64,000 nucleotides of DNA from an uncultured Planctomycetia bacterium (GTDB lineage Bacteria > Omnitrophota > Gorgyraeia > Tantalellales > Tantalellaceae), in NCBI GenBank assembly GCA_964572255.1, contig CAZNEE010000003.1:25258-89257 (forward strand), read 5' to 3'. Shown in pieces: positions 4,996 to 44,341 of this stretch. The notes under the pieces were generated by a model. That model had not been told where the DNA came from and did not search any database. It saw only the letters and a program-made list of their open reading frames with translations. Every line of letters starts with the position of its first letter. Positions within the stretch are counted from its first letter, which is position 1. The translations under genes were made by a program, and so were the position numbers.

Positions 4996-4997
4996 GT

Positions 4998-14174: not shown

Positions 14175-14181
14175 AATTCAA

Positions 14182-20623: not shown

Positions 20624-20624
20624 A

Positions 20625-22262: not shown

Positions 22263-22296
22263 TTTCTCCTCACCTGTAACTTGCGGCTTACTTTAT

Positions 22297-22995
22297 CTAT
22301 CTTGATAAAAACCACACCTTGATCATATCGACCAGTGTAGCCCATACGATAGACGGGTGCGCAATATGCGATCTTCCTGCAGTGCGGGAAATAAAAATGA
22401 GCGGATATTGATATATTCGCCCTTTCTTCTTTTTGGCATGAAGAAAAAGTTCAACATCAACGAACGGACTGTGAGAGATAAATTTAATGTCTTTAATAAA
22501 ATCTCGTTTTATTATCTTATACCCTGAATTTATATCTACTATATCCAGGTTGAAAAATATCTGTACGAGTAAATTATATGTTCCGGAAATAATTTTCCTC
22601 TTAAGCGTATCACCTTTTCTTATTTTACTGCACCCTGTCACTATATCATGTTCTTTAATGAGCGGCAGAGAATCTTTAATGTCCTCGATCCTGACAGGCA
22701 TATCCGAATCCATGTAAATTATGATGTCCTTTGTTGAGCGGCGGAAACCTTCAGCGAACGCCCCGCCGAACCTTGTGTTCTTTTTCATGTGGAAAGATCT
22801 TACCAGAGGATCATGCAGGGCCATTTCATCGATGATCTCGCCGCTTCCGTCCGTGGAGGCGTCATCGACTATGATGATCTCATATTCATCCGTAAGTTCA
22901 CGGGCTATGGATCTCATCGCACTGACCGTGTTATCGATATTATCCTTCTCGTTAAACATCGGAAGTACAAATGATATACTGTAAATTTCCTTCAT
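22297..22995 (-). CDS. Family 2 glycosyltransferase (polyprenyl-phosphate sugar transferase, ArnC/DPM1-like)
   Basis: SFVLPMFNEKDNI ... IIIVDDASTDGS ... YMDSDM (a DXD-type motif) indicates a GT-A fold GT2 enzyme. Confidence 0.75.
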   Translation of the reverse strand: MKEIYSISFVLPMFNEKDNIDNTVSAMRSIARELTDEYEIIIVDDASTDGSGEIIDEMALHDPLVRSFHMKKNTRFGGAFAEGFRRSTKDIIIYMDSDMPVRIEDIKDSLPLIKEHDIVTGCSKIRKGDTLKRKIISGTYNLLVQIFFNLDIVDINSGYKIIKRDFIKDIKFISHSPFVDVELFLHAKKKKGRIYQYPLIFISRTAGRSHIAHPSIVWATLVDMIKVWFLSR

Positions 22996-23000
22996 ATGTT

Positions 23001-28143: not shown

Positions 28144-28187
28144 AAATCTCTTTCCCGCTTATTATCGCAGCTGAACTGCCGCCAAAT

Positions 28188-29447
28188 TTACATATTGATA
28201 AACATATCCTGAGCAATAACCGCCGCTGCTCCTATAGCTACAGCATCTTCACCCAGACTGGTTGGAAGTATTTTTGAAACTTTTACCGATTCTTCATATC
28301 CCCATCTGCGGACTGTTTTTCTTACCGATGAGAGAAAAATATCGCCTGCCTTTTCAATGCCTCTTCCGATAACCACGATCTCCGGATTGAAGAGATTGAT
28401 AAGAAAAGCTATTTTTGTCCCAAGATATTCCCCCGCTGAATCAAGAGTATTCTTTGAGACTTCATCTCCTTTTTCGGCCGCATCGACTATCATTTCAAAA
28501 TTTATCTTTTGAGGATCTCCCCCCGCGGCATCCTTCGCGGCTGATGTTTCATCAGGATGTTCGGAAATGTACCTCTTTACCCTGTCAATTATACCGAGAT
28601 CCAATCCCCTGGAACGCAAGCAGCACCCATAATCATAAGTCGCCCAGCAGGTTTCGGGGTTTGCTTCTTCCCCCGGACGAGGCGGATTAATGTTAAGCTC
28701 TCCCGCGCTCTTGCTTGCGCCGTTATAAAGCTCTCCCTTTATGATAAGACCGCAGCTCGAATCAGAACACATGAAAACCATGTTCTCAGCAGCGCTTGAC
28801 GCGCCTATACCGGACCATTTTTCCCCGAACGCCGCCAACGCCGCATCATGCTCTATGGCAACAGGCATACCGAACTCGTCTTCAAGCTGGTTTAAAAGGT
28901 TTGTGTAACTTATTATCTGCTCTTCCTCGATCGCATATCTGACCATCCCGCGGTATCTATCCAACACGCCCCAAATACCTACACCGATACCTTTTATAGA
29001 CGCATGCGGGATGCCTGAACTGGCGATAAGCTTCTCCGTCATCTCAACAACTCTCTCCGATAACTTTTCAAAAGATTCCTTTTGCTTCAGGAATTTTTCT
29101 TTTGCTACAACCTTGCCGTTGATATCCAATATCACGCCTATAACAGACGCTCCTATCGTCAGATGCGGAGCTCCCAGATCTATGCCTATGGTATAAGCAT
29201 ATTCGCGATTTAGCATCAATAGCTCCGGCCTTCTTCCTCCTGAGGAAATATCCAATCCCGTCTCCAGGACTAGTTTATCTTTCACATATTTAGTGACATA
29301 GTTAGAAACCGTAACTATATTTAGATCTGTTAATTTTGATATCTCGGCGCGGGATATTTCATTGTTCCTGCGTATCGAATCAAGTATGCTGAGATTTCTC
29401 CGCTGCTTCTCAGATAATCTATTTTCTTTAAAAATAAGTTCTTTCAT
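28188..29447 (-). CDS. ROK family transcriptional regulator (NagC/XylR-like)
   Basis: N-terminal winged HTH (ISRAEISKLTDLNIVTVSNYV) plus a ROK sugar-kinase-like domain with a Zn-binding HxxxxCxCGxxGC-type cysteine cluster (HASIKGIGVG ... CSDSSCGL). Confidence 0.75.
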   Translation of the reverse strand: MKELIFKENRLSEKQRRNLSILDSIRRNNEISRAEISKLTDLNIVTVSNYVTKYVKDKLVLETGLDISSGGRRPELLMLNREYAYTIGIDLGAPHLTIGASVIGVILDINGKVVAKEKFLKQKESFEKLSERVVEMTEKLIASSGIPHASIKGIGVGIWGVLDRYRGMVRYAIEEEQIISYTNLLNQLEDEFGMPVAIEHDAALAAFGEKWSGIGASSAAENMVFMCSDSSCGLIIKGELYNGASKSAGELNINPPRPGEEANPETCWATYDYGCCLRSRGLDLGIIDRVKRYISEHPDETSAAKDAAGGDPQKINFEMIVDAAEKGDEVSKNTLDSAGEYLGTKIAFLINLFNPEIVVIGRGIEKAGDIFLSSVRKTVRRWGYEESVKVSKILPTSLGEDAVAIGAAAVIAQDMFINM

Positions 29448-29480
29448 TTCGGCACTCCTTCTATCCGGGTATGTGCTGCT

Positions 29481-30569
29481 TCAGCGCTTTGCGCTTTTGG
29501 AATACCATTCCTTAATAACCTGCTCTGCAGGTTTATTCTGCGGAGTAAAACCTCGATTATGTTTACCGCCCATATTAACATTTGTTCCCCAGTACCACCA
29601 ATAGAGGCCGTAAAACCATTCCTTTTCCCAGAAAGTCTCTACAAGCGCTTTGTAAAAATCTTTCTGAAGCCTGAGATTAACTTCTTTTCTCGGGGCATGT
29701 TCCCAGGGCCTTATTGCGGCTCCGTCCGCCGAATTACATCCGGCTTCCGGAAATATGATAGGCTTGCCTACTTCTATCTGAAAGGCCTCTATTTCATCAA
29801 GCCATTTATCCCAGGCCTCCTTCAATTCCATGTACGATGGGTCCATCTCCTGCGTCAAAGGAAAATACGCGTTGACCCCCACATAGTCTAAAAGATCCCA
29901 AAAGCGTATATCAAGATACCTGTCCCAATGAGCCGCATAAGTAAGAAGTCCCGGGTATTTTGATCTTACCTTCTTTATAAGACCCCTCCAAAGATATCCT
30001 TTAGAGGTCGCTGTTGTTGAAAGTTCTGTACCTATACAGATCATCTCAACTCTTTCTTTTTTTGCTATGTTTACGTAATACATAATATATTCTTCATACT
30101 GACGGAACCAATCTTCCCAACCGGCTTCTTTCAGGCAACCTATCTCACCCCTCCAGCTGCCGTCGGAAGTATCCAAAAGATCAAGATGGGGCTTAAGCAT
30201 GACTTTAAGGCCCAATTCGTGCGCTTTACGAATAGCGTGAATAATGGATTCATCCGAAGGAGTTCTATTGGTTCTGTGTATATCGTTCGACCAGCAGTTG
30301 GTCTGATACCACGTCACGAGAATACTCACCCAATCCGCACCCAACTCTTTCACCTGCGCCAATGATTCATCTGACTCTGGATTGATATACCCCTCCATTG
30401 ACCACGTTACATAGCCTATGCCCTTTTGAAACTCAATTTCGTATCTTGGCTGCATGAAATACTTAGCTCCGAATATCGCGGCAGCAGCAACAAGGGCAAT
30501 AACAATAATTATGCCGATGAACCTTCCGGGACCTTTTCCAGCACTTTTTGACGATTTACTCTTTGCCAT
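29481..30569 (-). CDS. Clan GH-A TIM-barrel glycoside hydrolase (GH5/GH113/GH26-like, possible beta-mannanase), membrane-anchored
   Basis: N-terminal TM anchor, candidate acid/base ICIGTELS and candidate nucleophile IIFPEAGC on beta-strands. It is paralogous to the catalytic domain at 32166-33827. Confidence 0.55.
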   Translation of the reverse strand: MAKSKSSKSAGKGPGRFIGIIIVIALVAAAAIFGAKYFMQPRYEIEFQKGIGYVTWSMEGYINPESDESLAQVKELGADWVSILVTWYQTNCWSNDIHRTNRTPSDESIIHAIRKAHELGLKVMLKPHLDLLDTSDGSWRGEIGCLKEAGWEDWFRQYEEYIMYYVNIAKKERVEMICIGTELSTTATSKGYLWRGLIKKVRSKYPGLLTYAAHWDRYLDIRFWDLLDYVGVNAYFPLTQEMDPSYMELKEAWDKWLDEIEAFQIEVGKPIIFPEAGCNSADGAAIRPWEHAPRKEVNLRLQKDFYKALVETFWEKEWFYGLYWWYWGTNVNMGGKHNRGFTPQNKPAEQVIKEWYSKSAKR

Positions 30570-30619
30570 TTTTCTCTCCCTTTCTTTTTAAATTATAAAA
30601 GGTTTAATAAACAATGATT

Positions 30620-30697
30620 TATCAGACGATTTTAAACGCAGATACCCAAATATCAGACGCATATTTACCTTGCGAAAGATTAGTGAATATCTGCGTT
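30620..30697. promoter_or_regulatory. Candidate operator region upstream of GH gene (inverted and direct repeats)
   Basis: Inverted repeat AACGCAGATA (30635-30644) / TATCTGCGTT (30688-30697), plus direct repeat TATCAGACG at 30620 and 30651. The region is 5' of the 29481-30569 gene in a locus encoding a ROK regulator. Confidence 0.3.
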
Positions 30698-30714
30698 AAC
30701 TGTTATTCTTAAAT

Positions 30715-31476
30715 TTACCTACCAACCCTCACATTGTCAATATAAATGGGGCCGGTATATTTAGGTTTTCTGTTAGACTCTACTCTTATTGCTATTTTTC
30801 TTACATCTTCGGCAAACTTTGCATCCGGTACGACTCTTTTCCAGTCGTAACTGCCCGGTTCTATAACACCTGTAACAGTAACCCATTCTCCCGGAACAAG
30901 AGGCACGCTGCGGCTCATCTCAACGAACTTCCAGTTATCGCCGACGGTAAGTATTATCTTAGCCTTAAGCCCGACAGGGGCATCTTCCGGGATGTACATG
31001 TCAAGGCTGATAACGCGATAAGAGCTGAGATCAAGATACTGCTGTATTTCCACCAAAGAAGCAGTCCAAGTGCCGCCCGGAAAATCTGACATTACCTTCA
31101 ACGAAGCGCTGCCTTTAGAAGCGACATCCTTGGATACCATGATATCCTGGGCGACATAATCGGTTTTTCCTTCTGTCCAAGTGGGTATCTCCCAGCCGGA
31201 GAGGTTTCTTTCAAAATCATAATAGGTTCTTTCTTCTGTAATAGGCTCATCGGAAGGAGTTGGAACTGCTTCTTCCATGACTTCAGCAGCTTCTTTAACG
31301 ACAGGAGTAAAGGCCCTTTTCCCTTCTTCGGGTTTTCCGCACCCATAAAGACCAAGCATAATAACACAAAACCCAACCACGAGCAGCCCAAGAGTACTTG
31401 TACGGAGATACCTCATCATTCTTCCTTTCATTTTAGGCAGAAGGTAATAGGTAAAAGGTTGCAAGACTCTGAACAA
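30715..31476 (-). CDS. Secreted lipoprotein with CBM-like beta-sandwich domain (paralog 1)
   Basis: Probable real start MMRYLRT ... LYGCGK (lipobox) near 31419. The C-terminal 170 aa are highly similar to the product of 31535-32125 (GWEIP.W ... MYIPEDAP.GLKAKIILTVGD.WK.VEMSRS ... IRVESN..P.YTGPIYIDN.RV). Confidence 0.55.
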   Translation of the reverse strand: MFRVLQPFTYYLLPKMKGRMMRYLRTSTLGLLVVGFCVIMLGLYGCGKPEEGKRAFTPVVKEAAEVMEEAVPTPSDEPITEERTYYDFERNLSGWEIPTWTEGKTDYVAQDIMVSKDVASKGSASLKVMSDFPGGTWTASLVEIQQYLDLSSYRVISLDMYIPEDAPVGLKAKIILTVGDNWKFVEMSRSVPLVPGEWVTVTGVIEPGSYDWKRVVPDAKFAEDVRKIAIRVESNRKPKYTGPIYIDNVRVGR

Positions 31477-31534
31477 CTCGAGCCCGCTTCCCTTTACCTA
31501 TTATATTGCCCCTCAACCAAATATTTTAAATCGA

Positions 31535-32125
31535 TTATTCTATGACTCTTATATTATCGATATAGATCGGTCCGGTGTATGCAGGACGATTGTTCGATTC
31601 TACTCTGATGTCGATCTTTCTTACATCCTGTCTGAAAGCGTCATCAACCTGCACCCTTCTCCAATCGATACTTCCTTCTTTTAGATCGGCTTCTACTGTT
31701 ACCCACTGGCCGGGCTTTAAAGCATAGGATCTGCTCATCTCTACCCATTTCCAGGAATCTCCAACAGTCAATATGATCTTCGCTTTAAGACCAAGCGGTG
31801 CATCTTCAGGTATGTACATATCGCATGCCAATCCGCTGAAATCTGTCCAATCAAAATACTGCATTATCTCGATAATGGCACCGGTCCATCTGCCGCCCGG
31901 AAAATCGACCATGATCTCAAGGCTGCTTTCACCCTGGCTCGCAAAATTATTGGAAACATTGATCTCTTGCTGCACGTGATCCGGTTTTTCATAAGCCCAA
32001 TCCGGGATTTCCCATCCCTGTAAACCGTCCTCAAAATCAAAAAGAACAGTTTGCTGTGCAAAACCAAGAGCCGCTCCGCTGAAAACCAAAAGCGCAGCTG
32101 AAATCGCTAATAGTACTTTCTTCAT
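31535..32125 (-). CDS. Secreted CBM-like beta-sandwich domain protein (paralog 2)
   Basis: Signal peptide, then a domain about 55% identical to the C-terminal domain of 30715-31476. The pattern resembles non-catalytic carbohydrate-binding modules of glycanases. Confidence 0.55.
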   Translation of the reverse strand: MKKVLLAISAALLVFSGAALGFAQQTVLFDFEDGLQGWEIPDWAYEKPDHVQQEINVSNNFASQGESSLEIMVDFPGGRWTGAIIEIMQYFDWTDFSGLACDMYIPEDAPLGLKAKIILTVGDSWKWVEMSRSYALKPGQWVTVEADLKEGSIDWRRVQVDDAFRQDVRKIDIRVESNNRPAYTGPIYIDNIRVIE

Positions 32126-32165
32126 CTTAACTCCTCCTCTTTTTTAGTTTAAAACCTTATTTATA

Positions 32166-33827
32166 TTATAACTTTTTTAGCCAATTTTTTACAACATTTT
32201 CTGCTTTTTTATCATTAAGCGTAAATCCTAAAGGACTCCAGCGTTTTTGAGGGAAATATTGCCATATATAGTAGCCTTTGAACCAGGGACGCTTCGAAAG
32301 CACCTGAAAAAGAGCCTCAAAACAGTCTGCCTGCTCCTGCTGATCTTCTATCCTGCTTATAGCGACCCAAGGCTGACGATTAGTGCCATCAGTTGAGGTA
32401 TATCCTATCTCGGTCAAAAGAATACCTTTTTCCGTTAAACCCTTCTCATTTAGCCAGGCCTCTATCTCGTCAGCCTGAGCGTTCCATGCCGCTATAAGAT
32501 CTTCCAGGGTAGGATCATCTTCACCGGTTAACGGGAAATATGCGTCTATACCGATGAAGTCCATTTTATCCCAAAACGGCACTTCTTTATATTCCGTCCA
32601 GTTAGCCGAATAAGTGAGTACGCCGTCATACACTTCCTTGGTCTTATCTATTACTCTATTCCATCTTTCCGCCCACGCGGAAAAGGTTGTCGCTTCGAGC
32701 TCTGTTCCTATGGAAAACATCTCTACATTATTCTCCTGGGAAAATACAGCATACCTTAAAATAAACTCCTCATAAGAATCGAACCATGCTTCTGACGGCA
32801 TTATGTTTATGCGCGCTTCATCTGTTCTTGGGTCAACATGAGGTTTTATCATGACTCTAAGGCCTATCTTATGACATGTTTCAACAGCATGCTTCAGGGA
32901 TTCCATTGTAGGGGTATCTCCGCCCGGTTCATCGTTTGTAAATATCACTTCGGAATCAAGATCATCCTGATATGCGGGAACCATGATAGCTACCGTATCA
33001 AACCCTATTTCTTTAATTCCAGCAAGAGTCAGGTCGGATGCCACTGAATCTAATTCATCTGCCATCCATGATGTATAAACTATGCCATGCTGGAATACTT
33101 TATCTTTAATCGGAATGGGCGCTTGAGCAAGACTATCAAGAATTTTTTTCACTTTTTCTTTCTCTTCCTCCTCCTCACCTTTACCTAAATATGCTGCTTT
33201 TGTAGCTATTGCATGAGGATTCTGACTGGAAGGACCGTATATTTCTACCTCCCATATAGATATTCCCCAATTATCCTCAACTCTCTCAAGGCCGAGTATT
33301 TTTATGTATCTGCATTTAACCGGCGTGAAATCAGCTTCCATTCCTCCGCCTTGCCCGTTTTTTTCATGATACACTTCTTTCCATGTCTGGGCATCATTTG
33401 AAACCAGTATCTTATAATCTGTCGCATACGCTCTTTCCCATCTGATGATAATATTGGAAACCGCGCTTTCTTCTCCAAGATCAAAGTATATCCATTGCTC
33501 ACCGGCTTCATAACTGCTCGACCAACGTGTAAGCATGTCGCCGTCAACCGGTGCCATCGGGTTAGGTTCGGGAGCCCAATCGGGAGTTTCATCAAAACTT
33601 GAAGCTTCCGCGGCTACAACCTTAATATACGCAAGTTCATCTCCTTCAGCCACTTCAACTGTTTCTACTTCCTCGTCTATTTCAACTATGTCAACAGCAG
33701 CACCGGTTTTTTCAGCCGGCTTCCCGGCCTCTTTTTCGGCTTCCGGGGTTTTTGCCACGCCGCAACCCGCTATTAAGTTGACCGATAAAAATAAAATAAC
33801 CAATAATCCGAAAATTTTTCTCATCAT
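32166..33827 (-). CDS. Lipoprotein: F5/8 type C (discoidin) domain + clan GH-A glycoside hydrolase
   Basis: Lipobox LIAGC; a discoidin-like segment (DGDMLTRWSS ... YKILVSNDAQTWKEVYHEKNG ... WEVEIYGP); then a TIM barrel with IGTELE and LTEIGYTS motifs homologous to 29481-30569. Confidence 0.6.
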   Translation of the reverse strand: MMRKIFGLLVILFLSVNLIAGCGVAKTPEAEKEAGKPAEKTGAAVDIVEIDEEVETVEVAEGDELAYIKVVAAEASSFDETPDWAPEPNPMAPVDGDMLTRWSSSYEAGEQWIYFDLGEESAVSNIIIRWERAYATDYKILVSNDAQTWKEVYHEKNGQGGGMEADFTPVKCRYIKILGLERVEDNWGISIWEVEIYGPSSQNPHAIATKAAYLGKGEEEEEKEKVKKILDSLAQAPIPIKDKVFQHGIVYTSWMADELDSVASDLTLAGIKEIGFDTVAIMVPAYQDDLDSEVIFTNDEPGGDTPTMESLKHAVETCHKIGLRVMIKPHVDPRTDEARINIMPSEAWFDSYEEFILRYAVFSQENNVEMFSIGTELEATTFSAWAERWNRVIDKTKEVYDGVLTYSANWTEYKEVPFWDKMDFIGIDAYFPLTGEDDPTLEDLIAAWNAQADEIEAWLNEKGLTEKGILLTEIGYTSTDGTNRQPWVAISRIEDQQEQADCFEALFQVLSKRPWFKGYYIWQYFPQKRWSPLGFTLNDKKAENVVKNWLKKL

Positions 33828-33840
33828 ATCCTTTCTTTTT

Positions 33841-34713
33841 TTATCCTTTTAGTCCGATCATCGCTATACCTCTAATAAAATATTTCTGGAACACCAGATA
33901 CACAACAAGCATGGGAAGCGTAGCCACGACCGCTCCGGCCATGACCATACCAAAGTTCGCTCCGAACTGCCCCGTCAAGACCGCTAAGGCAAGCGGGATG
34001 GTCCTCATGCTGCTGGTATGAATAATTACTAAAGGCCAAACAAAGTTATTCCACTGCTGCAAAAACGTGAAGACAGCCAAAGTGGCAATAACGGGTTTTA
34101 TCAAGGGTAAAATAACATGCAAGTATATCCTGAACTCATTACATCCGTCTATTCTCGCAGCATCGATAAGATCATCCGGGATGCTATATATGTACTGCCG
34201 GTTGAGGAATATTCCGAACGCGCACCATGCCATCGCGGGGATAATAAGACCCTTATAAGTATTAAGCCATCCTAAATTCTTTACAATAACAAACCCCGGA
34301 ATTATATTTACCTGCCAGGGGATCATGAGTGACCCTAAAAATATAAAGAAAAGTTTATCCCTGCCCCAGAACTTATGTTTTGCGAACGCGTAACCCGCAA
34401 GTGAGGTCGCAAAAACATTAAAAATGGTAATAGATCCCGCGACAAAAACACTGTTAAACAGGACCCTGACCATGGGTACCATGCGGAAAAGATCCGTATA
34501 AGGTTCTATGGTAGGATCCTTAACGATGAAGCTCGGCGGATAAGACTGTATTTCCGAAAGAGGTTTAATTGATGTAACGAACATCCATACATAAGGAACA
34601 GCCATTGTAAGCGCCCCTATAATAAGGAAAGCGTATATGAAAGTCTTTATAATGGCCGGATCTTTTCTTATTCCTGCCCCGCGAGATAGATCTGTTTTTT
34701 CTGTTTCAAGCAT
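33841..34713 (-). CDS. Carbohydrate ABC transporter permease (MalG-like)
   Basis: Six TM helices and an EAA-like motif DAARIDGCNEFRIYLHVILPLIKP. Confidence 0.8.
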   Translation of the reverse strand: MLETEKTDLSRGAGIRKDPAIIKTFIYAFLIIGALTMAVPYVWMFVTSIKPLSEIQSYPPSFIVKDPTIEPYTDLFRMVPMVRVLFNSVFVAGSITIFNVFATSLAGYAFAKHKFWGRDKLFFIFLGSLMIPWQVNIIPGFVIVKNLGWLNTYKGLIIPAMAWCAFGIFLNRQYIYSIPDDLIDAARIDGCNEFRIYLHVILPLIKPVIATLAVFTFLQQWNNFVWPLVIIHTSSMRTIPLALAVLTGQFGANFGMVMAGAVVATLPMLVVYLVFQKYFIRGIAMIGLKG

Positions 34714-34726
34714 ATTCTTCCTATTA

Positions 34727-35638
34727 TTAGTAATCTACGGTCGTTCTCATCAAGCGCTTATTGATCATCGTAAGCATAAAAATGCAAAGGAAAATGATAT
34801 ACGCAAGAGCCGAAGCGTACCCCATCTGAAACTTCTGGAAGCCTTTGTCATAAAGATAAGCGACTATTGTAAGAGCGCTGTTAAGCACTCCGCCTATGCC
34901 GCCCTGCCCGCCTGTCATGATATATACCTGTTCAAATACCTGAAAACTGAATATAAAACTCATCATGGTAACAAATACGATCGTGGGCTTAAGAAGAGGA
35001 AGCGTCACCTTGAAAAACTTCGTCCAAAATCCCGCTCCGTCGATCTCCGCCACCTCATACATGACATGCGGTATGGTCTGAAGGCCCGCCAGAAAGAGTA
35101 TCATGTTATACCCTACACCGGCCCATATAGACATCATCATGATGGAAGGAAGCGTCCAGGCGGTGCTTGCCAGCCAATCAATAGGCTGGAACCCGAATTT
35201 CATTATAACATAATTTAAAAGACCATACTTTTCCCCCGCATAAAGCCATTTCCATATAACGGACACCGCTACGATCGCGGTAACGGTAGGCAGGAAAAAT
35301 ACGGACTTGAAAAAATTCTTTAATTTTATCTTCTGATCTATGGCGACAGCCAGAAGAAGTGATATGCATATGCCTATGGGAACAACTCCGATAACATAGA
35401 CTACCGTGTTCCTCATGGCCTTCCAGAAAAGAGGATCGTTGAACAGGATGCCGGTGTAATTTTTGAAGCCTACAAATTTCGGGGAATGGACGACATCGTA
35501 TTCGGTAAAAGACCAGAAAAAGGAGATAACTACAGGGGCTAATTGGAAGATGAAAAATAATAGAGCCGGCAATGCGATAAACAGGTATGAGACCTTCTGT
35601 TTGCTTAGCTCCTGCCAAAAAGACTCTGGTTTTTCCAT
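34727..35638 (-). CDS. Carbohydrate ABC transporter permease (MalF-like)
   Basis: Six TM helices and the motif EVAEIDGAGFWTKFFKVTLPLLKP. Confidence 0.8.
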   Translation of the reverse strand: MEKPESFWQELSKQKVSYLFIALPALLFFIFQLAPVVISFFWSFTEYDVVHSPKFVGFKNYTGILFNDPLFWKAMRNTVVYVIGVVPIGICISLLLAVAIDQKIKLKNFFKSVFFLPTVTAIVAVSVIWKWLYAGEKYGLLNYVIMKFGFQPIDWLASTAWTLPSIMMMSIWAGVGYNMILFLAGLQTIPHVMYEVAEIDGAGFWTKFFKVTLPLLKPTIVFVTMMSFIFSFQVFEQVYIMTGGQGGIGGVLNSALTIVAYLYDKGFQKFQMGYASALAYIIFLCIFMLTMINKRLMRTTVDY

Positions 35639-35753
35639 CCCACCTCGTTCGTTATATTTATAATATTAAGGAAAAGAACCTGAAAAAGGGTAGTCACATT
35701 TTACATAAATTTGACATTCCTGTCAAATAATTTACATTTGCTGAATTTTTATG

Positions 35754-35839: not shown

Positions 35840-38800
35840 TTATGCTGACAATAGAAGCTGTCTTCTAGTATGAAGCCTGTCTTCCTTAAAAGGCCTTATC
35901 GGCATATTAAGCATAACGTTCCTGATAAGGAATAAAAGGTGCCCAAAAGCCTGGGCCTTAAGTTCTTCAGGAAGAATTTTCATGGCTCCGCTCGAAATTT
36001 CCTTGCGCGGCAGCATAAAATATAATGCCTCTCTTTTCATGGATCTGCCTGTCAACTGCTCTATGAATTTCTGAAGATCATCGGCAGCATTGCCTTCGTC
36101 TTTCTTGCTGATGTCTTCAGGCGTCACCGCCGCCAATAATATTGCCGTTCCCTCCACTTCTCTGGTGAAGTACCATCCTTTACCCTCGAGATCTTTCTCC
36201 TGATCGATATCCGGTATGACCAGTATTCTTATGTTGCCCTCCTCAAGCATCTCTCTGACTTCCGGATTTGTGCTGTTAACCGCATCCTGGATGTTGGCTT
36301 TAGTGCCTACCAGAACATTTATCTCGTCATCTTTCAGATCCATTTCAGCTACCTTATCAAGCCCTAACTTTGCCTGATAAGTCCTGATGGTAATGTTAGG
36401 ATTAACATTTTCTCTTAACTGCTGCTGCTCCCATTTATGCGAGCCCACATCATTTGAATCATCTCCCGGCGCGAACATCTCAACAGGCTGGATCAAGTTT
36501 ATTGTCTTGCCGGCCGTGACCGAGACATGTTTTCTGAGATTTTCATACGATGTATATACTATATTCTCATCTCTTGTTTTTTCATACATCACTTTAACTA
36601 CGGCACGTTCCGTTCCGGTTTCAGGCTTTATTATATAATCCTGATCCTGCGGTATATTATACTTACCTATAGCCACCGGCTCTATGGGTGTGCCTTCCGG
36701 CGTCTCTACTTTTATCTTACCTTTTTGAACAATCAGACTGTGAGCTCTCGCGGCTAAAATCTCCGGCCTCCCAACAGGTTTTATGATATCGAGTCTGTCA
36801 AAAGTATCGCCGTTCTTCAAAAACACTATTTTTTCCAGCCATTCAAATTCATCTACTGCAGGCACCTCGGGCCCTTTAGCCATAGGTTTCGGGAATTCAC
36901 GCTCTTCCAGCTGCGGCGTGAAAACATCGACGATCTTTGTTCCCGCCTCGGCTATGATCTTATAACCACCGGCGCTCGCAGGCACGAACAACATGCCTTT
37001 CCCTGGAACGGCGCGCGGTATATGATAAGCTGTGCCATCTACTCCTGCCACGCTGGCTTCGCCGCCCTCAATGAGCCAAAATCTATGCAGGCTGGCAATA
37101 TCGGAAACTTCTATTACGCCTGATCCGGTAAAAGTTATTACATGCGCTTCCAAACCCTTGCTTTCAAAATTGCCCGGCATGCGTTCGATCTTGTATGTAT
37201 CAGTAGCCTCGATAACTTCCATGGACGTTATCTTGCCGACCACCGGTATAGATTCATGGATCCTGTCAAGATCAAGACCTTTTTTAGCTTCGGGATACCA
37301 TGAACGATACCTTAATCTGTCAAAATCATCAGTTGATTGAGTCGTGCCGGGGATCTGCGGCTCTACGACCGTGACTCCCGGACCAAGAGCATGCAGCATC
37401 CCGGCTTTTACGGGAATAACATCGCCCGGTTTCACTTCAACATAGTTGTAAAATTTTTCCATCTCATTCCGTAAAACTTCTATAGTTTTTATATGCACAC
37501 CGAGATGTTCGTTTTTAGGCGAAGAGGCTCTTGCCATTCTGGCGACAGGAAGGACCCTGCCGACTTTCTCAAGCTGTTTTTCATATCCCAAGTGTACGAG
37601 AACTTCGTAAAGATCTTTTAATTTACTATCGTACGCATTTGCTATGTTCTGATAAGCCTCGCTGACGCCGATCTTTTGGCCTTCGTGTTCCTCTATTGCT
37701 TCTTCGCTGAAACCGAATATGATCCTGGCTCCCTCTTCCGCTTCCGTAACAAGCCAGGATTCATTCTTTGTTTCGTGGAACTGGACTGAAAGCCATTCCT
37801 GCGGTGTAAGGAGTTTTACCAGCGGCATTTCAGCGCCATAATCCATTACGGGTTTTTCGCCAAGTGCTTCTTTTGGAACTTGAGCAATAACACCGAACAT
37901 GGGAGCTGCCTCATCCTCTATTTTCAACAAAGCGGTCTTAGGTGCCATGAAACCGTCCCAATATTCTCCTATTTTGACGCTGACTATCTGATCTTCTCTT
38001 CCCCATTCCTTGGCTTCCCTGTAAGGTTCGCTGTAAACCGGTTTACCTTCTTTAAGCGCAGTAGCTATAAGGCCTTCAGGCGTGTTTTCATCAATTGTCC
38101 TTGCGGCCCAAACGCCGGGTGATTGTGTTTGAGGCGGCGCATCTTTTTTAAGCGCCTTATCGACCATCTTTTGTACGATCGCGACTCTCTTAGCAAGCAT
38201 TTCCGTACAGCGATCCGATGTTTTTGCGCCTACATAAAATCTGAAAATGGGTTCATTGCCCGAAGGACGCAAATGAACAACATCGTCATTGGCGAATGTC
38301 ATCCTTATTCCGTCAATAAGGTTCAACATCACGATCTCATCTTCAAATCCCATTTCGCTTGTGAAATAACCTTTAATGTTCTTTCTGATCTCCAAAAGCT
38401 CATCGAGCTCATCATCTGTAAGTTTATATTCAGCCTCATCTTTATCTATCGCAGTAACGCCTTTTTCGTCATCAAACTTTACCTCACCTATTTTACTTTT
38501 CTTATCTTTCGGAGAAAACATCGCCACTATCGCTTTCCCGACATCAGGAGTATATTCCGGTATTTCCCCTTTTTCAATAATATTGCCGCTCTTATCTTTT
38601 TTGTCGCCTGAAACTTTGCTTGCGTCAGTTTGATAAGAAGCAAGCCTTGAGGCTATGAGTTCTGAAGCTTTCTGGCCCTCAGCGATCTGTCCTATAGCAA
38701 GAAGAAGCGGAAGCGCGGCATCCCGTGATGGGATCGGAAGCAGTTCTTTATTGCCTCCGGGGATCTTGAAATTGGTTGCCGTGAGAAAACCTCCGTTCGA

Positions 38801-41800
38801 TTCCCAGCTGATAACTTTTGCTTTCTTCTTGTCTTTATCGGAAAGCGGAACACGATAATCATTCATGGCTTTAATGACATACGGCGAACCGATCTTTGTT
38901 CTTTTCACTTTTATTTTTTTACCTTTAGCGGATTTCATGTTTTTAAGATCTTTAACCATCTCCGGATTAGCGCTTGTGGCTATCGCTATAAAGTCCGGTT
39001 TTAGAAACTGTGCGGCTAAAGCGCCGAGTTTATCGCCCGGCAGGAAATTCCCGTTCTCATCCGCGAAAAGAGGCCTGTCAGAATCACCGTCTGTTGAAAT
39101 AATAACATCCGGGCTATACTCCTCTGCAAACTGTTTAAGAAGATCCCTTGTTTCGTCCGAAAGCTTTTCCGTATCAACAGGAATAAATTTATCATCACTT
39201 CTTTCAACAGGTATAATCTCAGCACCTAAAGCCGCCAATATTTTCTCTAATATATCCCTGCCGACGGCTGAATGCTGGTAAAGCACTATTCTTTTGCCTT
39301 TCAAGAAATCTGCCGGGAATGAATCAATATAACGCTGTATATAAGCTTCTCTTGCCTTCTCATTCACGGATTTAAACTCGGCAGGAGCCATCTTAAATAT
39401 GCCGTCTCCGCTGAACTGGAGTTCATCCCAGTCTTTAGCGTATATTTTCTTTCTTATATTTTTAACATTCGCAAGAATGCCCGCCTCGTCGTCTTTTAAA
39501 ACCTCGCCGTTTGGTTTGACGAACTTGATCCCGTTCCTATCATCGGGAATATGGCTTCCTGTTACCATGATACTCGCGCGTCCGTTCTGCATCCCCCAGT
39601 AAGTAATTGCAGGCGTCGGCAGTTCGCCGCAATAATCGACCGCGCAACCCGCCTCTTCTATAGCTTTAGCGACCGCTTTAAGGATCCTGCCGGTACTTGA
39701 ACGGCGGTCTCCGGCGATGGAAATGGTATCGCCGCGTTTTATATCCTCAGAATTTATAAGATACTCGATGTAACCGCGTGTGTTGATATAACACTCCATG
39801 TCGGTCATATTAACGACTTCATCCCTCAACCCGCTTGTCCCGAAGGTGAGTGTTTTAAATTTTTCCATTTTTTCATCAATTCTTGCGATCTCCCCCAGCG
39901 CTTCCTGACGTCTCCTTTCGAGTTCTTCCATGCTTACGCCCGCCATGACCTCATGCGTTTCTTTGAATGACAATTCATTGTTATATATAGGTACATTGTA
40001 AGTGTTATTTTTATCTCTCAGATTGGTGTCTTCGGAAACCATCATACCGACAGGCCCATTATCTGTCAAGACAGTTCCATGCCTCATTTTTTCATCAAGC
40101 GCGAGATCATCCAGCTTGCTGCCCAACGATTTATAGATACCACTATGCTGGTTTAGAACAGTTTTTCCTGTTCTGGAACTGGATACAGCAAAAGAATCCG
40201 TTATCTCCACATCCCCAAGCGTGGAGTCCTTAATTACACTTCCGTTTACTTTGCCCGCACCCGTGATCTTGCTGTTTATGATAACGGAATTTCTGACCTT
40301 AACATCTTCGCTTATCTCTGAATTAATTATGATATTGCCGTTTGCATCCCTTACTCCGGAAATACCTTCGATCTTACGCGCAACAATGCCGTCCGGACCG
40401 TCGTCATTTATAGCCAGATATTTTTCTCTCATGGCTTCATGCTGACCTATATCGGGCCAGTAAACATTATCCCCGAGATCGAATATTTTTAGACTTAACT
40501 CTCTGCCGTATTTTTCTTTGAATATTTCTTTTACTCTTTGCACTTTTTCAAAGAACCAGGGAACCATCTTAACAAGTTCCTCTAGTTTTCCGTCAGCTTC
40601 AACAGCCTTGCCCCACTTATCAGTATCATTATCCATCGCAAGCGCCATCAAAAAATAAGGATCAAAATCAAAATATACTCCATCCTTTTTTATCTCTTTA
40701 TCAAAAACCTCTGAAGCGATGTCAAGCACATCATATGACACGGCTACAGGCCCAAGACTTATGCCGACTCTATCCGAATCAATGCCAAGCTCCTGCATTT
40801 TAGCTTTCAGGTCTTCGCGCAAAGCCTCAGCTCCATTCGGATTACGAGCCACCTGCGCCAGCATGTTGCCTTGCTCGTCAAAAATAACCCAATCCTTTTG
40901 CTTCGCTTTTTCATCGGAGATCTCATCAAGTTCCATTACCGAAACAACTTTCATCACGTCTCTTTCGGCCAGCGATTCGCCTTCTTCCGGGGCCGCAAAA
41001 AGATCGACCGAAGCGACCTGGGTTTCATCTCCCCATTTATCAAGTATGCCCCTGAATCCTCTTGCCTCAAGATATTTAGCCACAGGACCAAAATACAAAA
41101 GCGCTTCCTCAATGGCTGATATGGACTCTTTGGATCCATCAATATCCATGCTTGCCGCGGTGGAAGCGATAGCCGGTTTACGCACAGCCTCTACATCCGT
41201 AAAAGGCGACATCCTCTCGCCCTGGCCGAAAAGCATGCCTATTAAAGTCACATAATCCCTATAATTGATCTTAGCTTTTTTAGCCGCTTTTTTAATGTAG
41301 TCATAAGCGAGCAGTGTGCCTAAAAAGTTCCCCTCTCTTGTCTTTTTTTCTATTTTTCCTTTTTTTGTCTTTGTTTCTATTTGTTCCTTCAACGCGAGCA
41401 TCAAAGTGCTGTTATCGCTGTTAAACAGGCTTTTGGCCGTCTGGTCAAACCTTTCCTGCCAATCTTTTTGGTCACGTTCCATGGAAACAACAGCGACGAT
41501 CTTCACATTATCGTTCGCTTTAATGGCTTTATGAGTGTTGTCTATATTTTGAAGATTTGTCCTAAGCCCGGAATTTTCAGCTATTAATCTCTCTTCGTCC
41601 AACTTCGTCCTTTCTTCAGCTTCTTTTTTCCTTTTTTCGCCTATCTTTCGGCGTATGTCCATGATATTGACTTTCTCACGGACTTCCTTCTCTGTCATCC
41701 CATATACTATATGATAAATTTCGTGTAATGCCAAGCGCTGAATTTCATCCTCTGTCAGAATTTCGAAATCTTCGGCATCCATGTACATGTTAGGGGTCAA

Positions 41801-44128
41801 AGATGTGTGGCCCGGAAAACGTCCGGGATGAGCTATCAGGTCGAGCGGGATCTTATCTTCGTCATTTTCGACCGCTTCATTGAATTTTTCATATATTTTC
41901 AACAGCCCGGGGATAGAATATAACTTGATGCTGATATCCTTGACCGTATGGTTCTTGACATTTACATCGATTTCCTGAACATCATCATCGTACCCCAGGT
42001 CCCGGCCAAGGCCCTGACTTAACATGCCGCCGAGCACAACATTAATATTTTTATGCTGTTTATCGGTAAGAGCTTCTACCCTGACAAGAACACTCGCGGC
42101 TTCATTGCCCGGTGAAAATCTGTTCTTGAATACCACCCTTATAACATTTTTGGTCGCTTCGCTGAGCTCATGTCCTGTCCATTCAGCACTGATCTCGCAC
42201 TTACGGATGTATGCTTTTAAAATATCTTTCCATTCATCCGACGCTTTCTGCCAAACTCCCGGATCGGCGTTCTTCTCTACTTCTTTAAGCCATTCCTCCA
42301 CCAGTTTTATTACCACACCGTCATGGAAGTCTTTGGCTATTTTTTCATAAGGTATAACTTCTTCGCCGGCCTGCTGCATCTTTTCATAAACATCCTTGAG
42401 CTCCTCGTCTATTTCTTTAAGCTGATCAGGATGTTCAAGAAAAAGCGGTGTAAGATAGACCGCTCTCATCAAGGGGTTCATCATTCCGCTTTCCGGCTTG
42501 GCAACCTCTTCACTTGATTTTTTGACGTCGCTCATGCCGGCTATCGCGGCGCTTTCAGTGATAATATCTTCAATGGAAGTTCTCTGGTTAGTAAGTACTT
42601 TTATGTAAGGAGTTTCAACATCTTTTGTGATCTTGGGAGTAATAACAACGTAAGATATGCCTTTTTTCTCGAGTATATCTTTCATGCCTCTTGTGTGGAA
42701 CCCTCCAGCTATCATGACACATGCATTTTCTCCGGATTTTTCCATTTCCTTAAGGGTGTTCTCGATCAGTACATTGTCTCTTTTCATCGCTATCTCGTAA
42801 AAACTTACCATGTCAGGAAGATTTTCACTGACCTGAAGAGGTATCCCGTTCAGGGAATAATTCAGCGCATATTTATTGCACAGATCCCCAATAAAAGCGG
42901 CAACGTCATCTAGAGTAAATTCATCCTGATATTTTTTGAAAGTGTCATAATCGCCGTTGGTAAGTTCGATATTCACAAGATCCAGATACAGATCGATCAT
43001 GTGCGCGTATTTATCAAGCGTTCGCTGCGCCTCATCGGTAAATAATTTGTCTTTGATCCTTGTTTTCGCGATCTCTATCTCATGAAAAAGCCCTTCATTA
43101 TCGATCATGTCATAAAGTTTGGTGTAAAGGTAATAGTAAAAAAGATTGGGATATTCCTGGACTATCGGCAGATTATGTGTTTTGGCAAGTTCTCTTAAAT
43201 AAGTGTAAAATTCAACCGCCTTTATGTGCCCCTTTTTGAATCTTATGCTCTCTCCGACAAGCGCTGTCATCTCTTCTTTGGTGAGTTTATCGCTTAAAGC
43301 GTCGATATAACGGCTTCTTTCCTGATCGACTATATCAAAATCTATTTTTTGTTCATATTCCAGAGTCTCTATGAGCTTTTTTAAATTGGCAAGATCTTCC
43401 AGTTTAACGCCTTTTTTCGACGCATTCTTATAGAGATAATCCGCGAACGCGCTAAGTTCCAGTTCCTTTTCTCCAAACGCCGTGATTCTCTGGTCAAGCT
43501 CTTTTAATTTTGGAGGATAAATAATTGATTTGAGCCTGCTTACTACTGTCTTTAGATCGGTAAAATAATTCTCTATATTATTTTTATGAGGGTAAACTTT
43601 GGTGAAGGCTTTAAGGTTCTTAATGTAATAATCTCTCGTTTCAGCACCGAATATCGTGCCGTTATAATTTGATGTGATCGAATAAAACTCCGTACCGGTT
43701 ATCTCGCCTTTTTTCATGAAATAATCGGCGACTTCCTTGCGGATCTCAGCATCCGGAAAGGCCCTGAACCAGCTTGTATCTACCAGGCCTTCGGCACCTT
43801 CCACTGAAATAACATCAACACCGCATTCGGTATGAAGCTGATCGAGCATTTTGTTGATATTGTGCTGGGCTTCATAATTACAGTGGGCATCCTGGATGTG
43901 AATTATGATCTTGTCTGTCTTACCTTCGAATTTTTCCTTAACAATCCCGTAATCAAGAGCAACTCCGATATCCTCAACAGTAAGCTTATCTGTTATCTCT
44001 TGAACTTCGGGCGCGGTTACTTTGTTTTCCGGCACCGTGTAACCGATACTGTAGAAAGAAAATGTAAATAAGACAAAAAATGTCGCAAGTTTAAATAATA
44101 ATGTTTTTTTCATCCCTTCACCAAACAT
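35840..44128 (-). CDS. Giant multidomain protein 1 (2762 aa)
   Basis: Single uninterrupted ORF; the likely start is MKKTLLF at about 44113 after GGTGAAGGG. Domains in order: N-terminal signal/TM; a TraB/GumN/Tiki-like module (nt 42540-43920); a GMP-like nucleotidyltransferase tail (YWPDIGQ) with left-handed beta-helix repeats (about 40200-41000); a four-domain phosphohexomutase (FGTSGLR, TGSHIP, DGDSDR, RPSGNEP; 38200-39845); a type-I mannose-6-phosphate isomerase cupin (GDVIPVKAGMLHALGPG; 36900-37900); and a C-terminal region of unknown function. Confidence 0.75.
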   Translation of the reverse strand: MFGEGMKKTLLFKLATFFVLFTFSFYSIGYTVPENKVTAPEVQEITDKLTVEDIGVALDYGIVKEKFEGKTDKIIIHIQDAHCNYEAQHNINKMLDQLHTECGVDVISVEGAEGLVDTSWFRAFPDAEIRKEVADYFMKKGEITGTEFYSITSNYNGTIFGAETRDYYIKNLKAFTKVYPHKNNIENYFTDLKTVVSRLKSIIYPPKLKELDQRITAFGEKELELSAFADYLYKNASKKGVKLEDLANLKKLIETLEYEQKIDFDIVDQERSRYIDALSDKLTKEEMTALVGESIRFKKGHIKAVEFYTYLRELAKTHNLPIVQEYPNLFYYYLYTKLYDMIDNEGLFHEIEIAKTRIKDKLFTDEAQRTLDKYAHMIDLYLDLVNIELTNGDYDTFKKYQDEFTLDDVAAFIGDLCNKYALNYSLNGIPLQVSENLPDMVSFYEIAMKRDNVLIENTLKEMEKSGENACVMIAGGFHTRGMKDILEKKGISYVVITPKITKDVETPYIKVLTNQRTSIEDIITESAAIAGMSDVKKSSEEVAKPESGMMNPLMRAVYLTPLFLEHPDQLKEIDEELKDVYEKMQQAGEEVIPYEKIAKDFHDGVVIKLVEEWLKEVEKNADPGVWQKASDEWKDILKAYIRKCEISAEWTGHELSEATKNVIRVVFKNRFSPGNEAASVLVRVEALTDKQHKNINVVLGGMLSQGLGRDLGYDDDVQEIDVNVKNHTVKDISIKLYSIPGLLKIYEKFNEAVENDEDKIPLDLIAHPGRFPGHTSLTPNMYMDAEDFEILTEDEIQRLALHEIYHIVYGMTEKEVREKVNIMDIRRKIGEKRKKEAEERTKLDEERLIAENSGLRTNLQNIDNTHKAIKANDNVKIVAVVSMERDQKDWQERFDQTAKSLFNSDNSTLMLALKEQIETKTKKGKIEKKTREGNFLGTLLAYDYIKKAAKKAKINYRDYVTLIGMLFGQGERMSPFTDVEAVRKPAIASTAASMDIDGSKESISAIEEALLYFGPVAKYLEARGFRGILDKWGDETQVASVDLFAAPEEGESLAERDVMKVVSVMELDEISDEKAKQKDWVIFDEQGNMLAQVARNPNGAEALREDLKAKMQELGIDSDRVGISLGPVAVSYDVLDIASEVFDKEIKKDGVYFDFDPYFLMALAMDNDTDKWGKAVEADGKLEELVKMVPWFFEKVQRVKEIFKEKYGRELSLKIFDLGDNVYWPDIGQHEAMREKYLAINDDGPDGIVARKIEGISGVRDANGNIIINSEISEDVKVRNSVIINSKITGAGKVNGSVIKDSTLGDVEITDSFAVSSSRTGKTVLNQHSGIYKSLGSKLDDLALDEKMRHGTVLTDNGPVGMMVSEDTNLRDKNNTYNVPIYNNELSFKETHEVMAGVSMEELERRRQEALGEIARIDEKMEKFKTLTFGTSGLRDEVVNMTDMECYINTRGYIEYLINSEDIKRGDTISIAGDRRSSTGRILKAVAKAIEEAGCAVDYCGELPTPAITYWGMQNGRASIMVTGSHIPDDRNGIKFVKPNGEVLKDDEAGILANVKNIRKKIYAKDWDELQFSGDGIFKMAPAEFKSVNEKAREAYIQRYIDSFPADFLKGKRIVLYQHSAVGRDILEKILAALGAEIIPVERSDDKFIPVDTEKLSDETRDLLKQFAEEYSPDVIISTDGDSDRPLFADENGNFLPGDKLGALAAQFLKPDFIAIATSANPEMVKDLKNMKSAKGKKIKVKRTKIGSPYVIKAMNDYRVPLSDKDKKKAKVISWESNGGFLTATNFKIPGGNKELLPIPSRDAALPLLLAIGQIAEGQKASELIASRLASYQTDASKVSGDKKDKSGNIIEKGEIPEYTPDVGKAIVAMFSPKDKKSKIGEVKFDDEKGVTAIDKDEAEYKLTDDELDELLEIRKNIKGYFTSEMGFEDEIVMLNLIDGIRMTFANDDVVHLRPSGNEPIFRFYVGAKTSDRCTEMLAKRVAIVQKMVDKALKKDAPPQTQSPGVWAARTIDENTPEGLIATALKEGKPVYSEPYREAKEWGREDQIVSVKIGEYWDGFMAPKTALLKIEDEAAPMFGVIAQVPKEALGEKPVMDYGAEMPLVKLLTPQEWLSVQFHETKNESWLVTEAEEGARIIFGFSEEAIEEHEGQKIGVSEAYQNIANAYDSKLKDLYEVLVHLGYEKQLEKVGRVLPVARMARASSPKNEHLGVHIKTIEVLRNEMEKFYNYVEVKPGDVIPVKAGMLHALGPGVTVVEPQIPGTTQSTDDFDRLRYRSWYPEAKKGLDLDRIHESIPVVGKITSMEVIEATDTYKIERMPGNFESKGLEAHVITFTGSGVIEVSDIASLHRFWLIEGGEASVAGVDGTAYHIPRAVPGKGMLFVPASAGGYKIIAEAGTKIVDVFTPQLEEREFPKPMAKGPEVPAVDEFEWLEKIVFLKNGDTFDRLDIIKPVGRPEILAARAHSLIVQKGKIKVETPEGTPIEPVAIGKYNIPQDQDYIIKPETGTERAVVKVMYEKTRDENIVYTSYENLRKHVSVTAGKTINLIQPVEMFAPGDDSNDVGSHKWEQQQLRENVNPNITIRTYQAKLGLDKVAEMDLKDDEINVLVGTKANIQDAVNSTNPEVREMLEEGNIRILVIPDIDQEKDLEGKGWYFTREVEGTAILLAAVTPEDISKKDEGNAADDLQKFIEQLTGRSMKREALYFMLPRKEISSGAMKILPEELKAQAFGHLLFLIRNVMLNMPIRPFKEDRLHTRRQLLLSA

Positions 44129-44341
44129 GATTATCTCCTCTCATTATATACGTTTATGTAGTTTACTATTAATATATACAAGATAAAATCACCCCAAAAA
44201 GTAGTATTCTGACTTTTTTTTATGTTTACATTTGTTAGATGTATTATATAAGAAAACCATGTTAAAGTCAATATTATATACTCTAACTATTTTATATCTT
44301 AATACCAGTTTTGTTTGTTTAACTTTATATAAATAAAGAAC

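Follow-up and report, generated by a model that had tools for sequence, protein, structure and literature searches.

Very long proteins tiled with enzyme domains have been described from the phylum Omnitrophota in two preprints, one on giants named 'Archaeovorins' (West-Roberts et al. 2023, bioRxiv 10.1101/2023.11.21.568195) and one on long proteins of a 'Module 2 sugar metabolism' (bioRxiv 10.64898/2026.06.07.730766). Here, we report the analysis of a 2762-aa protein from the same phylum (hereafter the giant), encoded by an uninterrupted open reading frame (ORF) at 35840..44128 on the minus strand of a 64,000-nt stretch of DNA (the window; contig CAZNEE010000003.1 of assembly GCA_964572255.1, positions 25,258 to 89,257). 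The giant belongs to a very large family, essentially confined to Omnitrophota, of modular multi-enzyme proteins with exchangeable sugar-enzyme cassettes, and its fusion of a nucleotidyltransferase (NT), a phosphomannomutase (PMM)-type mutase and a phosphomannose isomerase (PMI)-type domain is one permutation among these cassettes. According to the accessible passages of the two preprints, the proteins described there resemble it in having a chain tiled with sugar-metabolism domains, PGM/PMM included, and a signal peptide or transmembrane segments, and both preprints pose an equal localisation question for enzymes that look exported. Those proteins are 10 to 147 kaa (thousand amino acids) long and were analysed by Pfam co-occurrence, whereas the members of the present family measure 2-5.5 kaa. 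The same passages mention no mid-size family headed by a TIKI-type module, no HExxH peptidase, no conserved C-terminal module (C-module), no NT outside existing profiles, no NT-PMM-PMI cassette and no pairing with a mannan cluster. The initial annotation had regarded a nucleotide-sugar megaenzyme of this kind as novel; going by those passages, earlier work already gives a general description of multi-enzyme sugar-metabolism giants in Omnitrophota, without the family features just listed.

Fusions of enzymes of the GDP-mannose route are known from other bacteria. Bifunctional type II PMI-GMP enzymes (GMP, GDP-mannose pyrophosphorylase) of the AlgA/XanB/WbpW type join a PF00483 NT to a small C-terminal type II cupin PMI, and they contain no mutase. 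They are like the giant in carrying an isomerase and a nucleotidyltransferase of this route on one chain, and differ from it in that the PMI of the giant is type I-like, its NT belongs to a different family, and a mutase lies between the two. A second bifunctional enzyme, FKP of Bacteroides fragilis (an L-fucokinase/GDP-fucose pyrophosphorylase; PDB 9iis/9iit; PMC11982464), combines its NT with a GHMP kinase, whereas the partners of the NT in the giant are the mutase and the isomerase.

A described system with similar gene content is the biochemically characterised β-mannan locus (MULL) of Roseburia intestinalis (La Rosa et al. 2019; PMC6385246), in which mannose-1-phosphate (Man-1-P) is converted via mannose-6-phosphate (Man-6-P) to fructose-6-phosphate (Fru-6-P) and enters glycolysis. 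As in the window, a GH113 enzyme, an ABC importer with its solute-binding protein, a PMM/PGM and a PMI are encoded together, and the Roseburia PMI is also fused to another domain (PMC6385246). The MULL enzymes are separate, cytoplasmic and without an NT, whereas the giant joins all of its enzyme domains, an NT among them; in Roseburia, Man-1-P is supplied by GH130 phosphorylases together with an epimerase, neither of which was found in the ORFs scanned here; and the regulator is LacI-type in MULL and ROK-type in the window (PMC6385246).

The N-terminal module (N-module) of the giant can be compared with the TIKI superfamily (Tiki, TraB/PrgY, ChaN, erythromycin esterases (Ere), HopBA1, and RRSP of the MARTX toxins), for which a 2His/2Glu catalytic constellation and its spacing have been described (PMC6254334). 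The two are alike in the predicted fold and in the spacing of a His and a Glu; the N-module differs by a helical insertion of ~300 residues and by an Asp in place of the first Glu, and its Foldseek and Pfam matches are below significance.

Three sugar enzymes on one chain

All motifs quoted in the initial annotation (FGTSGLR, TGSHIP, DGDSDR, RPSGNEP, GDVIPVKAGMLHALGPG, FDRLRY, and W.DIGQ) were recovered at the expected positions in a motif scan of the giant, and the three sugar-enzyme domains that it had placed on a single chain are all confirmed at the fold level with intact active-site residues. Along the chain the NT comes first, then the mutase, then the PMI; both the pathway and the text of the initial annotation run the opposite way. 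Profile searches were expected to recover the domains and did so in part: the mutase is significant in both Pfam and PDB searches and the PMI is reached through a family profile, but the NT is without any Pfam match.

The mutase aligns over its full length to its best PDB match, 4hjh (E = 2.7e-70 with the whole protein as query, 1.3e-73 with the mutase segment), a structure called phosphomannomutase by its depositors' annotation, and every active-site loop is matched. The Pfam domains PGM_PMM_I (1.5e-19) and PGM_PMM_II (9.9e-14) are both far above the cut-offs, and PGM_PMM_III (18.4 bits) and PGM_PMM_IV (20.7 bits) are slightly under theirs, yet collinear with the first two. Together with the 4hjh alignment, these matches bear out the description of a four-domain α-D-phosphohexomutase with all signature loops. 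Beside FGTSGLR (residues 1429-1435), the loops comprise the phosphoserine loop TGSHIP (1523-1528), the metal loop DGDSDR (1680-1685), the sugar loop WESNGG, and the phosphate loop RPSGNEP (1954-1960), which are also found in the family consensus; a PROSITE-type phosphoserine pattern matches at 1519-1533. The catalytic serine (S1525) and the metal ligands are intact, as judged by motif match, alignment to 4hjh, and conservation in the family. In NCBIfam, GlmM and PMM models lead the matches (Arch_GlmM, 3.5e-45).

The NT had been described as GMP-like (ManC) with a W.DIGQ motif and a hexapeptide β-helix. At the fold level this was right: an AlphaFold2 (AF2) model built from an alignment of stand-alone homologues (predicted local distance difference test score, pLDDT, 90.9; predicted TM-score, pTM, 0.89) shows the nucleotidyltransferase α/β fold with a C-terminal left-handed β-helix plus the GxGxR...K signature. 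The ManC-like assignment did not survive. Neither Pfam (isolated segment, E <= 10) nor NCBIfam gave a single match to the NT, PF00483, Hexapep, ManC, and Pfam Fucokinase included, and the only PDB sequences matched by the NT family profile, CodY and LSD1, were judged spurious. The closest fold match is the FKP-type GDP-fucose pyrophosphorylase at 15% identity, and no fused GHMP fucokinase stands beside the NT in the giant. In the giant, the motifs are GQGERMSP (968-975), K984, KWGDE (1031-1035), DFDPY (1154-1158), and WPDIGQH (1224-1230); across the NT family, no variation is seen in the GxGxR...K signature, in two acidic motifs, or in WxDIGxH, which resemble in type the residues Gly75/76, Arg80, Lys89, Asp136, and His272 named for FKP (PMC11982464). 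This invariance of the signature and of the acidic and histidine residues argues that the NT is an active enzyme. It belongs to a family without a Pfam or NCBIfam model, nearer to FKP than to ManC. The stand-alone homologues (~555 aa, 36-60% identity) occur in Omnitrophota, Spirochaetales, and Pacearchaeota and are all unannotated, and their genomic contexts in Spirochaetales and Pacearchaeota are uninformative as to the substrate.

The PMI-like domain on its own falls below curated cut-offs (PF20511, E = 0.0087, 16.6 vs 22 bits; TIGR00218, 19.9 vs 116.2). A profile of its family (A2) nevertheless reaches solved type I PMIs in the PDB (1qwr, 1.4e-12; ManA structures, about 6e-10; 1zx5, 2.8e-7; 1pmi, 1.4e-6), and the proposed type I PMI cupin is thus upheld, as a divergent one. 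Four residues are invariant in 64 sequences of the PMI family, Q2116, H2118, E2123, and H2246 (A2 columns Q106/H108/E113/H236), and from the Candida albicans and Salmonella PMI structures we take these to be the zinc ligands. The alignments place 'LSVQFH' over 'LSIQVH' of ManA and 'GtLHALG' over the identical motif in 1qwr; H2246 is contained in GDVIPVKAGMLHALGPG, and FDRLRY follows at 2269-2274. Stand-alone homologues are ~390 aa long, with many of them annotated as type I PMI and many carrying PF20511.

A giant ORF could be a mis-assembly, a decayed fusion, or a scaffold of pseudo-enzymes, and the scores of the PMI and the NT below curated profile cut-offs would fit such a view. Identical copies of the protein are, however, encoded in four or more independent assemblies (ENA ERZ27256770, JGI 3300017987, JGI 3300029267, and Logan SRR14699969), and its homologues, at 32-49% identity, align collinearly from end to end. 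The ORF is therefore genuine, and an assembly or frameshift artefact is ruled out. Since the catalytic signatures are unbroken in the giant and maintained throughout the family, the three sugar enzymes are not pseudo-enzymes either; this explanation is effectively refuted, and we give it almost no weight.

N-terminal region, peptidase-like modules, and possible export

The giant had been described as signal-anchored and tethered to the membrane. Its N-terminus consists of a short K-rich start (MFGEGMKKT), a hydrophobic core at residues 10-28, and then YSIG|Y, and in a hydropathy scan residues 10-28 are the sole hydrophobic segment in the 2762 residues. The single N-terminal segment is thus present, but its role as an anchor is doubtful: N-termini across the family have in common an n-region with K/R, then a hydrophobic core and a c-region reading '..N[IV]SFA', with small residues at -3 and -1, so that by eye the N-terminus of the giant looks like a predicted cleavable Sec signal peptide rather than an anchor.

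The N-module follows, and a TraB/Tiki-like module ahead of the enzyme domains, as first proposed, was recovered there. In the AF2 model (pLDDT about 85), an α/β core with a parallel β-sheet between flanking helices, as in the TIKI/TraB/ChaN/Ere superfamily, is split by the helical insertion at residues 165-465. The family alignment identifies D80-x-H82, E110, and H478 as invariant. The spacing of 28 residues from H82 to E110 equals that of H85/E113 in Bcr135 and of H3902/E3930 in RRSP; this match to the TIKI constellation is drawn from spacing and not from superposition, with the Asp replacing the first Glu. Because a Foldseek search of the PDB with the model of residues 1-878 gave no significant match and Pfam on the N-module was below significance too, the TIKI-like fold is assigned with moderate confidence.

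Further along, the HExxH domain has invariant H767-P768 (HPG motif), H802, E803, and H806. Its family profile matches the minigluzincin projannalysin MJ1213 (E = 0.005), Pfam PhageMetallopep is matched by 11 of 22 members in this region, and the HPG...HExxH domain was found across the region (Table 1) in 23 of the 30 family members examined. It is probably a small, minimal zinc metallopeptidase, judging from these residues and matches, and it may process the polyprotein. The chain ends in the C-module, which is common to about half of the homologues among the matches listed and has a conserved tail (family consensus MPIxPFDxxxxLxxRRxVLWSV). Searches of PDB and Pfam with the C-module matched nothing, and its HMM (hidden Markov model) found no match in the two neighbouring giants in the window.

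These features raise the possibility of an exported or effector polyprotein, in which the signal peptide would export the chain, the TIKI-like and HExxH peptidases would process it, and the enzymes would act in the periplasm or else inside a host or prey cell or on its surface. Predicted signal peptides of the Sec type, with -3/-1 occupied by small residues and with no second hydrophobic segment, occur family-wide, there are two peptidase-like modules in the giant, and an N- and a C-module around variable cargo loosely recall the MARTX toxins, among whose effectors RRSP is a TIKI-fold match; Omnitrophota have moreover been proposed to be predators or parasites, and the accessible passages of the literature note an equal localisation puzzle. 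On the other hand, one would not expect nucleoside triphosphates (NTPs) or sugar phosphates beyond the cytoplasm, no secretion-system genes adjoin the giant in the window, and the signal peptide was called by eye and the processing is only predicted. On balance we consider such export improbable. A wider version, in which the whole family would be an unrecognised enzyme-delivery system of Sec-exported, self-cut polyproteins with an active TIKI-type hydrolase and often a minigluzincin, is a long shot. If it were true, entire sets of sugar-phosphate, nucleotide-sugar and glycolytic enzymes would be exported in this way, and central carbohydrate metabolism, in the present case the mannose-phosphate node, would take place in a compartment outside the cytoplasm, or else inside a host or prey cell or on its surface.

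A large modular family in Omnitrophota

An exhaustive search with only the N-module found 8,330 cluster representatives (3,153 at E <= 1e-30), in which the N-module is always located at about residues 30-530 of proteins 519 to 5,568 aa long. The N-module is present in 120 of 120 homologues among the matches listed. Omnitrophota account for nearly all of the named sources, and Elusimicrobiota contain distant relatives. The family plan is a Sec-type signal sequence and a ~500-aa TIKI/TraB-like N-module, to which many members add the HExxH peptidase and the ~330-aa C-module. The cargo differs: precomputed Pfam annotations of relatives include PFK, PGI, PGK, class II aldolase (FBA), FBPase, UDPGP, and PF00483 NTs, as well as CofD, transaldolase, ROK, epimerases, and cupin-type isomerases.

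In a census of 162 fetched family members, each 1,500 aa or longer and sampled with a bias towards relatives of the giant, the cassettes are PMM alone, NT-PMM, PMM-PMI, and NT-PMM-PMI, and the order never varies. All three domains share one chain in only six of these proteins, and the more common combination is NT-PMM without PMI.

Genomic neighbourhood

The coordinates of the domains and of the main neighbouring features are collected in Table 1.

Table 1. Domains of the giant and neighbouring features in the window (nucleotide positions are those of the window).
Feature	Residues	Position	Strand	Basis
Predicted N-terminal Sec-type signal sequence	1-29	44042..44128	-	Hydropathy scan, family N-termini
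N-module, TIKI/TraB/ChaN/erythromycin-esterase-like α/β core	~55-500	42629..43966	-	Predicted structure, conservation
HExxH domain, minigluzincin-like	~690-830	41639..42061	-	Conserved motif, family profile
Sugar-1-phosphate nucleotidyltransferase fold with left-handed β-helix	880-1420	39869..41491	-	AF2 model, motifs
Four-domain α-D-phosphohexomutase (PMM/PGM type)	~1425-1990	38159..39856	-	Pfam, NCBIfam, PDB
Divergent type I phosphomannose-isomerase-like cupin	~2030-2410	36899..38041	-	Family profile, conserved residues
Conserved C-module, fold and function unassigned	~2430-2762	35843..36841	-	Shared with homologues
β-Mannan cluster downstream of the giant		26905..35638	-	Pfam, NCBIfam, N-termini
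Promoter-like site ahead of ABC permease gene, 11/12 matches		35698-35726		Consensus scan only
Promoter-like site TTGACT-17-TATAAT, 11/12 matches, in 213-bp gap upstream of the giant		44243..44271	-	Consensus scan only
Upstream neighbour giant, 3737 aa		44342..55555	-	BLASTP, Pfam

Directly downstream of the giant, on its strand, lies a cluster which encodes, in this order, two ABC sugar permeases, a lipoprotein with GH113 and F5/8C domains, two mannan-binding proteins (CBM27/Mann_GBD), a membrane-anchored GH113 enzyme, a 419-aa ROK protein, and a sugar-binding lipoprotein. In three other genomes (38-49% identity), an orthologous giant is followed by these genes in an identical order, which makes four genomes with the query. 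The ROK protein aligns over its full length to the NagC/Mlc regulators and has a helix-turn-helix (HTH)-like N-terminal region, so that a role as mannose kinase is doubtful.

Two relatives show parts of the cassette as separate genes. In GCA_043823005.1 the giant is without PMI, and a stand-alone 398-aa PMI homologue (P0227) sits between the giant and the ABC genes; in GCA_043822245.1 a stand-alone NT homologue (P0135) lies directly behind the giant. Since PMI and NT are fused to the giant in some genomes and are its split neighbours in others, both are functionally tied to the giant and to the mannan cluster. At the first of these loci (L002, 6259-9594), the gene of an additional 1111-aa protein containing PGM/PMM separates the giant from the stand-alone PMI, which shows further reshuffling of the same modules; at the second (L001, 11629-13320), a 563-aa protein without a Pfam domain follows directly behind the stand-alone NT homologue and may be an NT-family paralogue.

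The initial annotation had read the giant as a dedicated membrane megaenzyme that converts Fru-6-P to GDP-mannose by successive PMI, PMM, and GMP activities and supplies nearby glycosyltransferases. All three enzyme classes that this needs are present and look catalytically competent, the bifunctional PMI-GMP enzymes with type II PMI (AlgA/XanB-type) are a precedent, and a polyprenyl-phosphate-sugar-type GT2 and a GT-C (PMT_2) are encoded in the same window at 22297-24605. These two resemble ArnC and ArnT, however, and lie >11 kb from the giant, beyond an M48 peptidase gene and other unrelated genes and outside the conserved synteny. We therefore rejected a functional link of the giant to them as the main explanation, and the idea that it feeds adjacent glycosyltransferase and glycan machinery finds no support, the conserved partner being the cluster for β-mannan binding, hydrolysis, and import. 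In addition, the NT is not ManC-like in sequence and is structurally closest to a fucose-1-phosphate guanylyltransferase, and the free loss of PMI or NT in relatives argues against a fixed three-step machine. Of the complete GDP-mannose pathway originally claimed, what stands is the three intact enzyme folds; the use of GTP and Man-1-P is not established. A dedicated GDP-mannose megaenzyme is in our judgement possible but unlikely.

Proposed role at the mannose-6-phosphate node

Because the giant heads a conserved cluster for the capture, hydrolysis, and import of β-mannan, we lean, with modest confidence, towards a role in handling mannose phosphates from imported manno-oligosaccharides at the Man-6-P node, rather than towards a dedicated GDP-mannose factory. 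The β-mannan would be captured, hydrolysed, and imported through the ABC system by the adjoining cluster, giving rise to mannose phosphates; the PMI domain would convert Man-6-P to Fru-6-P for glycolysis, and the mutase and NT would take Man-6-P via Man-1-P to a nucleoside diphosphate (NDP)-mannose in a salvage branch. Provided that they are mannose-specific, the three activities would link Fru-6-P, Man-6-P, Man-1-P, and NDP-mannose. The fusion would keep the enzymes co-expressed at a fixed ratio, and the embedded peptidase-like modules could then cut the chain into separate enzymes. This scheme builds on observed domain identities, conserved catalytic residues, the size and modularity of the family, and synteny; that the substrates are mannose phosphates, which nucleotide is used, which way the flux runs, whether the chain is processed, and where in the cell it acts are inferred.

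Several points weigh against a Man-6-P-node role. The mutase scores far below every NCBIfam equivalog cut-off, and its specificity for mannose phosphates is not established; nor is the use of GTP and Man-1-P by the NT, whose closest structure makes GDP-fucose and not GDP-mannose. The signal-peptide-like N-terminus predicts export, which is hard to reconcile with enzymes that depend on NTPs and sugar phosphates, and this is a graver difficulty than the missing mannose kinase or GH130 described next. No mannose kinase or GH130 was found among the scanned window ORFs of at least 150 aa, and neither GH130 nor a Man-1-P-supplying epimerase was found in these ORFs or in the syntenic loci; with neither kinase nor GH130, and with a ROK protein that is regulator-like, the source of Man-6-P or Man-1-P is unaccounted for in the window. 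Finally, the giant and the mannan cluster have separate promoter-like sites, and co-transcription is therefore not shown.

The likeness to Roseburia also suggests a purely catabolic alternative, in which mutase and PMI would send mannan-derived Man-1-P or Man-6-P to glycolysis and the NT would act on another sugar or be regulatory. Against it, the invariant GxGxR...K, acidic, and histidine residues of the NT point to an active enzyme, the commoner occurrence of NT-PMM without PMI suggests a joint action of NT and mutase, and the GH130 phosphorylase that supplies the Roseburia pathway is missing from the scanned window ORFs; we regard a purely catabolic role as improbable. The preferred role at the Man-6-P node retains both the catabolic and the salvage branch.

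Other features of the window

The 3737-aa neighbour, directly upstream, carries the same TIKI-like N-module as the 2762-aa giant, at residues 2-521 (29% identity, E = 1.6e-69 in BLASTP), followed by a cargo of Ser/Thr kinase, TPR, and HEAT repeats with two internal hydrophobic segments. A third giant ORF (55878-63977, minus strand), 2699 aa or longer, begins 23 nt short of the window edge and may be truncated; it contains some 16 hydrophobic segments, and its Pfam content is only DUF2963. The final ~30 residues are similar to the C-terminal end of the 3737-aa protein (..KIP.. / ..P-I..D....L...E..Y/L..A.I/S-M), and by eye they also loosely recall the C-module tail of the 2762-aa giant. This resemblance might reflect a shared C-terminal signal.

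The ArnT-like GT-C (PMT_2, 4.4e-54 to the L-Ara4N transferase model) and the ArnC-like GT2 are found together with a YdjC-family protein at 21405-24605 (minus strand), and from its annotation the trio looks like a set for the modification of a polyprenyl-phosphate-sugar lipid or glycan. Immediately downstream of smpB, at 20237-21083 (minus strand), is a tmRNA gene (150 bits), for which ARAGORN predicts an unusual tag peptide (VPQFAGTGPLVSALGY), and a tRNA-Leu(CAG) is located nearby at 21295-21381 (plus strand). A fluoride riboswitch (59 bits; 14121-14183, minus strand) is situated between a gene of the chromate-transporter family (14529-15050) and ORFs around 12.3-13.4 kb. The region 3542-12032 (minus strand) encodes all parts of a Pst-type system for phosphate uptake (binding protein, two permeases, ATPase, and PhoU); upstream of it are a porin and a two-component pair of the PhoR/PhoB-like kind.

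Implications

If its domains act on mannose phosphates, a single chain of the giant would span the whole Man-6-P branch point, which elsewhere takes two to three genes. The fused and split versions of the cassette provide a clear functional link for two poorly annotated families, the unprofiled NT family and the divergent PMI family. Outweighing the single protein is the observation that thousands of Omnitrophota proteins with a shared, signal-peptide-bearing N-module swap cassettes of central sugar metabolism. At 2-5 kaa, the family offers a tractable route to the questions that giant proteins raise, namely where their enzymes are located and whether the chain is cut into separate enzymes.

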